DNA of 63,909 bases, the filler included, from Stramenopiles sp. TOSAG23-6 (taxonomy: Eukaryota): assembly GCA_900128565.1 (NCBI GenBank). It is 26 parts of 26 records of this genome, joined end to end, with 100 filler letters (N's around TTAATTAATTAA, not from the genome) between each part and the next. Parts side by side here need not be neighbours in the genome. Positions count along the whole stretch, not along the records: positions 19,786 to 22,152 come from LT638089.1; positions 22,253 to 24,619 come from LT638090.1; 24 more parts are not named here. The stretch is one strand, 5' to 3'. The notes below the pieces were generated by a model that saw only the letters and a program-made list of their open reading frames with translations, made no database searches and was not told where the DNA came from. The position numbers were made by a program, and so were the translations under genes. Shown piece after piece: positions 21,790 to 24,719 of this stretch (within the stretch, counting starts at the first letter, position 1; every line of letters begins with the position of its first letter).

Positions 21790-22318
21790 TTGCTCTATAA
21801 GTAAGTTGAATATATACTAATTTGAATGGTGGCGATCAAAATAACAATACAGCGAATCTCCTGACCAAAAACCGTTGTGGTTGGTGTGAGCTAAAGCGGA
21901 GAAAACAATCATCATCAGAATTAACGACTGAATTTGAACGCAACGAGAACACGAATTAAGGTAGTCGGGTAAATCTGAGCAGTTTTGTGATTTCAGATTT
22001 TTTTTTTTTTTTTTGTGCTTTTGTCAGATTATATGCGGTCGTTACATAACCAATAATACAAAAAAAATAATTTGTAACAATTAGGTACAAAAAGTGGAAA
22101 AAGACTGTCTAACCGCTTTATTTGTCGGGTAGACAGTCTTTTTCCACTTTTTNNNNNNNNNNNNNNNNNNNNNNNNNNNNNNNNNNNNNNNNNNNNTTAA
22201 TTAATTAANNNNNNNNNNNNNNNNNNNNNNNNNNNNNNNNNNNNNNNNNNNNGTTAGGTACAAAATTTTTATAAAAAAATAAATTCGATTTTTTTGTAAA
22301 AAAAAAAATAAAACGTAC

Positions 22319-24530
22319 ATCAGGTTTTGAAGGAAAGTGTAACGGGACATCACGTTGCTTCAATTCAACTAATGCTTGAATAGACTTTGCTAAATGGGGT
22401 GGGAACCCAAAAATCATTTGGTACAAAGTAGCCCCTAGTGAATACATATCTGATAACTGTGCATCAAACGCTTCGCCATGTATTGTGAAAAAAAAAATTT
22501 TTTTTCGTAAAAATAAATCGTTAGGTAAAAATTTTCGTACGAAAAAAAATAAATTCGAAATTGAAAAAAAAAACATACATGTTTTTTCCCTTTATTTCTT
22601 GGATCGACTCGAGGTGATCTCGGAACTCCTTTCATTTGTTCACTAACGTCAAGTTGGCGACTGATTCGTTTCTGCTGTTCCCCCAAACATTCTGGTGCCA
22701 TGAACAAAGGTGTTCCCTTTGATTCATGTATTGTGAAAAAATATTTTAAAAATTTTTTTTGTTAGGTACGAAATTTCGTACGAAAAAAAAAATTGGTAAA
22801 AAATTTAATTTTGAAAATGTACATGAGCAATCAATTGTTCACATCTACGTTTCATTGAAGTCCCAAAATCTGCAATTTTTGCAATGCCTTCACTGCTTAT
22901 CAATATATTTGACGGTTTTAAATCTCTATGGGCAACATGCTGAAAATGGAGATAGTGCATGTATTGTAAAAAAAAATAAATTCGAAATTAGTTAGGTACA
23001 AAATTTTGTACGAAAACAAAATAAATTTGAAATTCATCATGAAAACGTGCATTCCTTGCAACGTGTCACGAAAAATATGCCAACAACGCTGAGGCTCCAG
23101 TGGTACTACTACTACCTCTTCTGGAAGTATGTATTTTGGAAAAATATTTTTTTTTTGTAAAAAAAAATTGTTAGGTACAAAATTTCGTACGAAACAAAAA
23201 ACGATTTTTTTGTTAAAAAAAAAATAAAACATACATGGATCCCTCATCCATATACTCGCAAATCTGATACACCTTATTAGAATCAGCAGCATCAATCACT
23301 TCATACAACATTACAATATTTGGATGGCGCATGTATTATGAAAAAATATTTCAAAAAAAAAATCGTTAGGTACAAAATTTCGTACGAAAACAAAATTCGA
23401 ATTTGAAAAAAAATAAAACATACATTTTTTTCAAAATTGCAATTTCATGAGCTAAATCATCATCTAAATCAACACCTCTACATGTATTGTGAAAAAAAAA
23501 AATTCGGTACAAAAAATTCTTAGGTACAAAATTTCATACGAAAAAAAACAACTGAAATTCAGGATGGAAAACGTACGATCACTTCTAATCCGCTGCCGTC
23601 CCTATACTGTGAAAAAATATTTTTTTTGTAAAATTTCTTAGGTACGAAATTTCGTACGAAAAAAAAATAAATTCGAAATTGAAAAAAAATAAAACGTACT
23701 GTACCAAAAACATTACGTTTCACTTCTTTTATTGCAAACAAACCAAGTGGATTTTCAGGAACAGCATCTTTCCCTGATACATCTTTTGCTAGCAAAACAG
23801 TACCAAAAGAACCTTGACCAAGTACTGTGAAAAAATATCTTTTTTTTCTTTTTGGTTAGTAAAAAAAAAAATCGTTAGGTACAAAATTTCCTACGAAAAA
23901 AAACCAAAAAAAAAAAATTAAAATTTCATGATGAAAACATACAAGCTTCCGCTGGACTTCGTACTGATTGATCATTCGTTTCCCATCTAAAAAGTCTTTC
24001 CGGACTTTGTGGGAGACTCTGGTCCGTCGACGAGTTTTTAATTTCCGTAGCTCGGGGTTACCTCTTAATGAACATCGAGAGTCACCTCCCAACAGCCAAG
24101 GGACACCGTGAACACATATATTGTGAAAAAATATTTAAAAAAAAAAAAANTNTTNGGNACGAAAATTTTTTTACGAAAAAAAACCAAAAAAAAAAAAAAA
24201 AAAAAATTAGAAATTCATATAAAACATACGACTCTTTAATTCGTTTTTCCAAGTGTGAGCTTCAGAAGATCTAAGACTCCAATGATCAAGTATTGTGAAA
24301 AAATATTTAAAAAAAAATCTAAAAAAATTTGTTAGGTACGAAATTTCGTATGAAAAAAAAATTAAATTAGAAATTCATTCATATAAAACATACAAATAAT
24401 TTATCTAATTTTGGATGTTTTGCAAGAAGATTTTCCCATTTTGACTTTGTAATTGACATCAAAACAACATCAGTATGAGAAATAATCGCGGATGTACCAT
24501 TCTCTTTTTTAGTTGTCTTTGCTATAGAGG
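22319..24530 (-). CDS. CaMKK-like Ser/Thr kinase preceded by a probable cNMP-binding domain end; 11 internal exons, truncated at both ends
   Basis: Exons 24530-24394, 24287-24230, 24115-23943, 23819-23700, 23601-23577, 23481-23424, 23330-23235, 23128-23051, 22958-22823, 22725-22579, 22477-22319 splice into one stop-free frame. It contains [59 protein letters not shown] and [10 protein letters not shown]. Confidence 0.92.
22478..22578 (-). mobile_element. Introner-like GT-AT intron (kinase)
   Basis: CAT|GTATGT...TACCTAACG...CACAATACAT|GGC. Confidence 0.88.
22726..22822 (-). mobile_element. Introner-like GT-AT intron (kinase)
   Basis: CAT|GTACAT...CACAATACAT|GAA; joins the DFG exon to the GTPLFMAPE exon. 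Confidence 0.88.
22959..23050 (-). mobile_element. Introner-like GC-AT intron (kinase)
   Basis: GGAAT|GCACGTTTT...TACAATACAT|GCAC; ATGCAC at both junctions; restores QGMHYLH. Confidence 0.85.
23129..23234 (-). mobile_element. Introner-like GT-AT intron (kinase)
   Basis: TCCAT|GTATGT...CCAAAATACAT|ACTT; restores EGSIL. Confidence 0.88.
23331..23423 (-). mobile_element. Introner-like GT-AT intron (kinase)
   Basis: AAAAT|GTATGT...CATAATACAT|GCGC; restores LKKMRHPNIV. Confidence 0.9.
23482..23576 (-). mobile_element. Introner-like GT-AT intron (kinase)
   Basis: GATC|GTACGT...CACAATACAT|GTAG; follows a 25-nt microexon. Confidence 0.8.
23602..23699 (-). mobile_element. Introner-like GT-AG intron (kinase)
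   Basis: ACA|GTACGT...CACAGTATAG|GGA; the AG sits at the position where family members have AT. Confidence 0.75.
23820..23942 (-). mobile_element. Introner-like GT-TT intron (kinase)
   Basis: CTT|GTATGT...CACAGTACTT|GGT; restores KLGQGSFG. Confidence 0.88.
24116..24229 (-). mobile_element. Introner-like GT-AT intron (kinase)
   Basis: AGTC|GTATGT...CACAATATAT|GTG. Confidence 0.8.
24288..24393 (-). mobile_element. Introner-like GT-TT intron (kinase)
   Basis: TTT|GTATGT...TACGAAATTTCGTACCTAAC...CACAATACTT|GAT. Confidence 0.8.
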
Positions 24531-24719
24531 ATGTATGTTCGAAAAATATTTCAAAAAAAAAAAATTAAATTTGTTAGGTACAAAATTTCGTACGAAAAAT
24601 AAATTCGAAATTGAAAAAANNNNNNNNNNNNNNNNNNNNNNNNNNNNNNNNNNNNNNNNNNNNTTAATTAATTAANNNNNNNNNNNNNNNNNNNNNNNNN
24701 NNNNNNNNNNNNNNNNNNN

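Follow-up and report, generated by a model that had tools for sequence, protein, structure and literature searches.

A repeat family of introner-like introns with mostly non-AG 3′ ends in a kinase gene and other genes of a stramenopile-like genome

The AG at the end of introns is among the most constant gene signals of eukaryotes, and few lineages are known to break with it on a large scale. U12-type introns are characterized by a 5′ RTATCCTT and a TCCTTAAC branch site about 10–15 nt from the 3′ end, and GT-AT has been reported as one of their rare terminal pairs; non-canonical U2-type introns of Fritillaria, larvacean tunicates, were reportedly described by Henriet et al. in 2019, and duplicated, divergent U2AF subunits and snRNA modification are further features of this system. 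In the accessible parts of the reports on Fritillaria, the introns are assigned a transposon origin and a non-AG 3′ end that stems from a short duplicated exon sequence (Soo et al., 2026, PMC13326754; PMC11282704), with AT as the commonest 3′ end (44% in F. pellucida, 34% in F. borealis), a YAY triplet before the 5′ site and again as the last three bases, a uridine tract that is kept, and mostly an AG at the start, which is the main start in F. borealis (PMC13326754). The introners of Micromonas, Aureococcus, Chrysochromulina, Florenciella and other organisms, in the portions of the source at hand, have GY-AG borders and a duplication of 3 to 9 bp (Gozashti et al., 2022, PMC9860276), and described introners carry one splice site and obtain the other from the duplication, and in Chrysochromulina it is the 5′ site that is supplied by the element and the 3′ site that is co-opted (PMC9860276, PMC11282704, as far as the accessible text goes). 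For Amoebophrya A25 and A120, the available text describes introners whose terminal dinucleotides are not fixed and whose inverted repeats of 8–20 nt form a hairpin, and U1 is apparently missing (Farhat et al., 2021, PMC7789003). Here, we followed up a first-pass annotation of DNA assigned to Stramenopiles sp. TOSAG23-6 (assembly GCA_900128565.1), in which an AT-rich element repeatedly interrupts a protein kinase gene on the minus strand of the scaffold at 22253-24619. The window, by which we mean the whole analyzed stretch of 63,909 nucleotides, consists of 26 joined scaffolds of 2345 to 2379 bases that are ordered by length and do not form one genomic stretch; the joints between them are N runs around a six-frame stop linker (TTAATTAATTAA). 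We consider it likely that the element copies are spliceosomal introns made by a small non-autonomous introner, and that their 3′ splice site goes back to a non-AG duplication and is determined by position.

The first-pass annotation, made from the sequence alone, had described 12 copies of one element in the kinase gene, ten of them complete with 92–123 nt, and had cut them in such a way that 6 GT-AT, 1 GC-AT, 2 GT-TT and 1 GT-AG introns and a single stop-free frame resulted. Our recount gave identical numbers, the termini were reproduced at the boundaries chosen there, and excision yielded 1187 nt with 395 codons and no stop, compared with 33, 33 and 40 stops in the three frames of the unspliced scaffold. 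The ten complete copies (k1 to k10 in Table 1, with their individual lengths) can be aligned end to end, the other two are cut off at the scaffold ends, and all 12 lie in sense orientation. The identification as a kinase also held, as two colinear matches to Pfam Pkinase were found, one of exon 22823-22957 to positions 112–147 (E 2e-12) and a weak one of exon 22319-22477 to positions 177–208 (E 0.008). The more specific label CaMKK fared less well: it is weakly supported, with GCN2, CaMKK2 and CaMKK1 as best solved relatives of one single exon, the catalytic-loop exon of 45 amino acids. A protein search for the full-length spliced kinase, carried out with a lineage-specific exon of 57 amino acids, gave no match.

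Removal of the elements from RNA was observed at three junctions of this gene. Three RNA runs and one DNA run (X3) were compared with positions 22253-24149, and the public runs that contain the scaffold are marine; X6 and X8 are polyA metatranscriptome runs of one study, X3 is an independent metagenome of a different study whose label as DNA is an automatic guess, and scaffold parts without RNA cover were given no evidential weight. For k9, an X8 contig covers 22894-22822 and continues at 22724-22589, with 97 nt skipped and no mismatch in 209 nt, and for k3, an X6 contig covers 24010-23942 and continues at 23818-23737, with 123 nt skipped. For k10, another sequence stretch from X8 covers exon 22319-22477 and is followed by 16 letters that correspond to the start of the neighboring exon. 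Two GT-AT introns (k9 and k10) and one GT-TT intron (k3) are thus joined at the predicted places; one-base offsets of these joints relative to the first-pass coordinates lie inside border repeats and result in the same RNA. In the case of k3, AGs are present 28, 19 and 5 nt ahead of the used TT end, the last of them as CAG, and the RNA contig passed over all of them.

How far does the reading frame by itself define the boundaries? When any single 3′ boundary was moved by 3 or 6 nt, the kinase frame was still stop-free, and the open frame alone therefore does not fix each boundary. In-frame AGs downstream of the assigned ends are found for k2 (+30), k4 (+9), k5 (+6, +18 and +30), k8 (+33), k9 (+9) and k10 (+21), and k1, k3, k6 and k7 have no in-frame AG within 45 nt. 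The downstream-AG alternatives of k9 and k10 are excluded by the RNA contigs, and the alternative of k8 would remove part of a conserved kinase motif. A non-AG end is therefore firm for seven of the ten complete copies, namely k1, k3, k6, k7, k8, k9 and k10; k4 ends with AG, and k2 and k5, for which an in-frame downstream AG may be used instead, do not belong to the firm set.

The spliced-looking RNA could also stem from strains or gene copies that are free of the insertions, with the insertion-carrying gene being dead, or—as a variant of this idea—the elements could be excised from DNA in the manner of the internal eliminated sequences (IES) of ciliates. Introner insertions are often polymorphic, the RNA and DNA runs come from different studies, and one contig of the RNA library X7 keeps both intron borders of exon 22319-22477, which would all be compatible with an insertion-free source of the joined RNA, although this X7 contig may be precursor RNA or DNA. 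However, exact removal restores long frames at 10/10 kinase copies and at no fewer than nine copies elsewhere, which would not be maintained in dead genes, and the three separate junctions, obtained from two runs, are all intron-free. As to DNA excision, X3 contigs run across the exon–intron borders of k3, k4/k5, k9 and k10 with the elements kept, and there was no intron-free joint at these places among the X3 joints listed; unlike IES, the elements are thus present in contigs of an independent metagenome, with the guessed DNA label mentioned above. In addition, marker proteins of the genome point to a stramenopile (see below). We know of no germline/soma DNA elimination in stramenopiles. Taken together, an insertion-free source and DNA excision appear extremely improbable. 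The first-pass annotation had named the use of nearby AGs and removal at the DNA level as outcomes that would speak against it: the RNA junctions, which exist for 3/10 complete kinase copies, show nearby AGs to be unused, and the X3 DNA keeps the elements.

The element is by no means restricted to the kinase gene. The window contains 36 occurrences of its 9-nt core, compared with 0.12 expected from shuffles, and a profile built from the ten kinase copies detected complete or cut copies on most scaffolds; these window counts take in duplicate scaffolds. Among public metagenome contigs, a 22-nt core pattern detected only one locus, L001, which contributed one further complete copy, and our family statistics therefore refer to 25 complete copies, 24 in the window and the one in L001. 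Their length ranges from 89 to 138 nt with a median of 101 nt (n = 25), and 24 copies can be aligned over the full length. For 9/14 complete copies outside the kinase gene, excision in the sense orientation connects open frames that extend over at least 30 codons on either side, and in antisense this holds for 0/14; of the remaining 5/14, one (copy 8923-9051) was left out of the frame test, and the others have short neighboring exons or N nearby. An intron-generating element, as the first-pass annotation had proposed, is thus supported by the presence of copies in many unrelated genes, by their strict sense orientation, and by a duplication-like border repeat of 2 nt.

All copies share the same anatomy. 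The consensus begins with GTAYGTTT, followed by a variable A/T part, T runs, TTTCGTACGAAATTTYGTACCTAAC, a T-rich tract, and ATATTTTTYCAMAATAC with two further bases, so that copies terminate with CAMAATAC plus 2 nt. Columns that never change in the alignment are G1, T6–8 and a TACCT.A block, and the most conserved part of the element is the branch-site-like block TTTYGTACCTAAC, in which TACCTAAC is invariant and represents the putative branch site. The 5′ end is GT in 24/25 copies and GC in 1/25, and the last two bases are AT in 18, TT in 4 and AG in 3. The distance between the CCTAA block and the 3′ end is 29 to 55 nt, and in 13/22 evaluable copies there is no AG between this block and the end. 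As judged from these motifs, the order of the presumptive signals is that of a major-type spliceosomal intron, from which we infer removal by the major spliceosome, with a 3′ site that would be set by its distance or by a motif and not by its own dinucleotide. The first-pass annotation had assumed a splicing system in which position or a motif defines the 3′ site, and such a system would be the natural explanation.

Many copies have a 16-nt palindrome at their center, and a hairpin or this palindrome had been considered as defining the cuts. This candidate was dropped, as consensus folding of 24 copies with RNAalifold gave no structure, with 0 conserved pairs, which makes a hairpin-defined excision unlikely. 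The left arm of the palindrome varies without compensation and the right arm is fixed, and together with the absence of any conserved pair in these 24 copies, this suggests that the conserved block is a branch site of the CTAAC type rather than a stem. The same data bear on a non-spliceosomal, nonconventional RNA removal, in which the cuts would be set by pairing of the intron ends, as in euglenids or in the hairpin model of Amoebophrya. Such a mechanism could account for the short inverted ends, with exonic AT plus GTAT being pairable with ATACAT, for the direct repeats of 1 to 6 nt at the borders, and for the non-AG 3′ ends. Against it stand the lack of conserved pairing in the folding analysis, a possible end helix of only 4 bp in the TT copies, and the presence of GTAYGT, the CTAAC-type block and the T tract in spliceosomal order; for euglenid nonconventional introns, the available part of the source states that a T tract is lacking (PMC11282704). 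We therefore regard a nonconventional removal as very unlikely.

The borders of the copies suggest how the introns may have arisen. Each of the kinase introns shows a direct repeat, 1 to 6 nt long, at its two borders, and in 18/25 copies of the family the two nucleotides before the GT are identical to the last two nucleotides of the element (permutation mean 12.3, p about 0.0009). TT precedes 4/4 copies with a TT end, versus 1/21 of the other copies (Fisher p 0.0004). Around the site, A or T is found at position −2 in 24/25 copies, T at −1 in 21, and G or A at +1 in 23. These patterns are consistent with a target-site duplication of 2 nt at WT|R and a mobile unit GTAY...ATAC; as no empty site was seen, we speak of a duplication-like repeat. 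Neither the duplication-like nature of the last two bases nor the ambiguous cut register of repeat-bearing copies had been part of the first-pass annotation.

In the mechanism that we favor, each copy would supply the sense-strand signals, which are the GTAYGT 5′ site, the branch-site-like block, the T-rich tract and the terminal CAMAATAC. Insertion would duplicate two target nucleotides, mostly AT and sometimes TT, at a target of about WT|R. The spliceosome would then cut at the GT and 2 nt beyond the ATAC, whereby the element would be removed together with one copy of the duplication, and the original frame would be restored irrespective of whether the last two bases read AT, TT or AG.

Several observations weigh against this mechanism or limit it. 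RNA support exists for only 3/25 junctions, with short contigs of depth 2 to 6 from one study, and the X7 contig mentioned above retains both intron borders. Seven of the 25 copies have no 2-nt repeat, the inverted ends comprise only 4 to 6 nt (GTAT/ATAC, 6 when the AT repeat is counted), and neither a transposase nor an empty site was seen. Furthermore, an intron at 35229-34966 on the minus strand, in the gene for RPA1, is AT-rich and element-like without having the core block, and it requires a different register: its start lies four bases past the family-register prediction and its end directly after ATAC, and both borders carry TAC. A tryptophan–aromatic pair that is present in 13/14 aligned RPA1 orthologues, the fourteenth (P0123) having no residues aligned there, is kept only in this register (GT-AC or an equivalent shift), and a GT-AG solution in frame was not found for this intron. 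The rule of an end two bases past ATAC is therefore not universal.

Another challenge concerns the exact cut. In repeat-bearing copies, the same mRNA results when both cuts are placed 1 to 4 nt further left, and all three RNA-supported introns carry a border repeat, so that the exact cut cannot be read from them. The same element could thus be removed from RNA with cuts 2 nt to the left, which would result in NN...AC introns that are mostly AT-AC. The AT-AC terminal pair fits spliceosomal active sites. This register gives AT-AC in 16/25 copies and an AC end in about 20/25, the mRNA is identical in all repeat copies, and copies without a repeat, such as k2, k5, 31382-31494 and 42949-43052, keep their frame as well, with only two bases changed. 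However, GTAYGT, which matches the usual U1/U6 target perfectly, would be placed at +3 to +8, the 5′ dinucleotide would become variable (AT, TT, TC, CA or AC), the 5′ end would be unlike the U12 consensus, and the branch-like block would lie 29 to 55 nt instead of 10 to 15 nt from the end. Also, in 3/7 copies with a decayed repeat (k4, 54379-54477 and 32365-32494), AG occupies exactly the final two positions in the GT register, as expected of a 3′ splice site. As GTAYGT corresponds to the expected U1/U6 target and AG ends these three of the seven decayed-repeat copies, the GT register is favored on the basis of the motifs, and cuts in the left-shifted register seem unlikely.

Table 1. Positions in the window of the kinase scaffold, its element copies, further family copies, and scaffold ends that lie within copies.
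Feature	Position	Strand	Description
Kinase scaffold	22253-24619	−	Protein kinase gene, 11 exon pieces, 12 element copies, N/TTAATTAATTAA linkers on both sides
Partial copy, 3′ part	24531-24619	−	Cut at scaffold end
k1	24288-24393	−	106 nt, GT-TT; TT before GT; no in-frame AG within 45 nt
k2	24116-24229	−	114 nt, GT-AT; 4 N inside; no left border repeat; in-frame AG at +30 nt
k3	23820-23942	−	123 nt, GT-TT; RNA contig skips exactly 123 nt
k4	23602-23699	−	98 nt, GT-AG
k5	23482-23576	−	95 nt, GT-AT by family register; in-frame AG at +6 nt
k6	23331-23423	−	93 nt, GT-AT; junction restores usual spacing of conserved kinase motif
k7	23129-23234	−	106 nt, GT-AT; no in-frame AG within 45 nt
k8	22959-23050	−	92 nt, GC-AT; 6-nt border repeat
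k9	22726-22822	−	97 nt, GT-AT; RNA contig skips exactly 97 nt
k10	22478-22578	−	101 nt, GT-AT; RNA contig exon to exon, short side 16 nt
Partial copy, 5′ part	22253-22318	−	Cut at scaffold end
Family copy	9269-9406	−	GT-TT, TT before GT; excision joins open frames of 79 and 80 codons
Family copy	47994-48091	−	GT-TT, TT before GT
Family copy	31382-31494	+	GT-AT, AC before GT, no repeat; joins open frames of 79 and 80 codons
Family copy	50745-50838	+	GT-AT; joins open frames of 80 and 80 codons
Family copy	54379-54477	−	Last two bases AG, canonical GT-AG version
Family copy in RPA1	34808-34904	−	GT-AT; junction restores tryptophan codon kept in two orthologues
Scaffold ends within element copies (examples)	9752-9807, 12227-12277, 19632-19685, 32116-32173, 46879-46931, 49178-49232		

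Some further features of individual copies may be mentioned. A TTTTAGAT motif is found about 13 nt past the branch-like block in k1 and in the copies 11488-11595, 14646-14747 and 31382-31494; its AG is never frame-keeping and evidently not used. In a second kinase gene (59976-61412), there is a family copy at 61386-61463, with a duplicate at 63831-63908, that starts with A instead of G (ATATGT) and has lost its 3′ end at the scaffold edge, and the conserved kinase motif just before this copy suggests that the GT four bases further on is used. For the two exons that flank copy 42949-43052, no solved relative was found.

As to the host, two marker proteins, IFT56 and RPA1, point to a stramenopile-like organism. 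The best named relatives of an IFT56 fragment are ochrophyte stramenopiles with 76 to 79% identity, and marine transcripts reach 80 to 86%, but IFT56 separates groups poorly, with 79% for Florenciella versus 74% for corals. RPA1, which is encoded on a scaffold with a family copy, has 72% identity to a EukProt protein, followed by oomycetes with 52% and animals with 42 to 49%. A fritillariid tunicate had been suspected as host from the 3′ AT and the YAY rule, and the relatives of IFT56 and RPA1 argue against it. The genome also has ordinary introns: an Arf-family gene at 7604-8494 contains a GT-AG intron of 102 nt without the element at 8001-8102 on the plus strand, and canonical and non-AG introns thus coexist in this genome.

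The repeat evidently fragments the assembly, as 19/52 scaffold ends lie inside an element copy (counted from profile matches and the scaffold map), which accounts for the shattering of the assembly into scaffolds of about 2.3 kb. In four scaffold pairs, the two sequences are the same or deviate from each other at one or two bases, for example in 12379-14747 = 14848-17216, 34580-36942 = 37043-39405 = 39506-41868 and 59120-61464 = 61565-63909. An Rfam scan of the window gave no RNA family and hence no small nuclear RNA, and there was no splicing-factor gene in the window either. A frame of 543 amino acids is open at 5748-7379 on the minus strand, with cysteine-rich repeats, a recurring C-x-x-C-G-G, and no Pfam match. 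Telomere-like CCCTAA/TTAGGG repeats occur in introns and in open frames at 42673, 42434, 43454 and 5441, and also in the RPA1 intron near 35200 and in L001 near 2270-2330; the window has 16 + 19 of these hexamers, which read as Asn-Pro runs in open frames. They could represent a second repeat type or amplification chimeras.

What makes this family valuable is its uniformity. With normal 5′ and branch-like sites and an AT or TT end in introns of about 100 nt, it isolates the question of 3′-site choice from other variables. The borders point to a mechanistic link, in that a non-AG duplication made by a transposon can still serve as a working splice site, and this suggests that tolerance for non-AG ends arises repeatedly where introners spread. 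As a practical consequence, programs for gene prediction that insist on an AG will annotate most genes of this organism wrongly. If the more tentative idea given below, of a spliceosome that ignores AGs, is true, a signal-complete introner could enter any genic WT|R site harmlessly and thereby reach a very high copy number, and AG-free splicing would, after Fritillaria and Amoebophrya, have arisen independently for a second or third time; the fixed GT start and the single uniform substrate would also open the choice of the second-step site to experiment.

In comparison with the known systems, a search of the literature gave no report of GT-AT introners or non-canonical introns for stramenopiles, though supplements and subscription journals could hold one, and term searches of the MAST genome papers PMC5778133, PMC8237690 and PMC8163842 gave no mention of unusual introns. 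U12-type introns are similar in that their 3′ site is not defined by AG, and they differ from the family described here, which has the 5′ consensus GTAYGTTT and a CCTAA block 29 to 55 nt from the end. With the described introners—to the extent that their features are given in the text at hand—the family shares the multiple copies, the presence in unrelated genes, the sense bias and the short border repeats; unlike these introners, it has a co-opted 3′ site that would be AT or TT in 22/25 copies, and the duplication would comprise only 2 nt. The Amoebophrya introners, as far as the available account goes, are likewise repeated introns of a marine protist whose ends are not GT-AG and whose borders are covered by direct repeats, whereas the family described here shows no conserved pairing, a fixed 5′ GT and an almost constant 3′ end. 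There is also agreement with Fritillaria as portrayed in the accessible passages, where the non-AG 3′ end stems from a duplication, as would be the case here, and a T- or uridine-rich tract is likewise found; 18/25 copies end with CAT or TAT and 10/25 have YAY before the GT, which resembles the YAY rule, and the TAC borders of the RPA1 intron match the Fritillaria introns that are preceded by an exonic TAC (PMC11282704). The family differs from the Fritillaria introns in its stramenopile-like host, in the canonical GTAYGT 5′ end (GT in 24/25), and in being one tight family of about 100 nt with a conserved branch-site-like block. It is a tentative thought, to which we give somewhat less than an even chance, that a major spliceosome which chooses the 3′ site by distance or motif, two bases past CAMAATAC and 29 to 55 nt after the branch site, and which ignores AGs on the way, arose independently in this stramenopile lineage. 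In conclusion, the best reading of our data is that the phenomenon of introners and non-canonical introns extends to a new lineage, in which it is convergent with Fritillaria and Amoebophrya.

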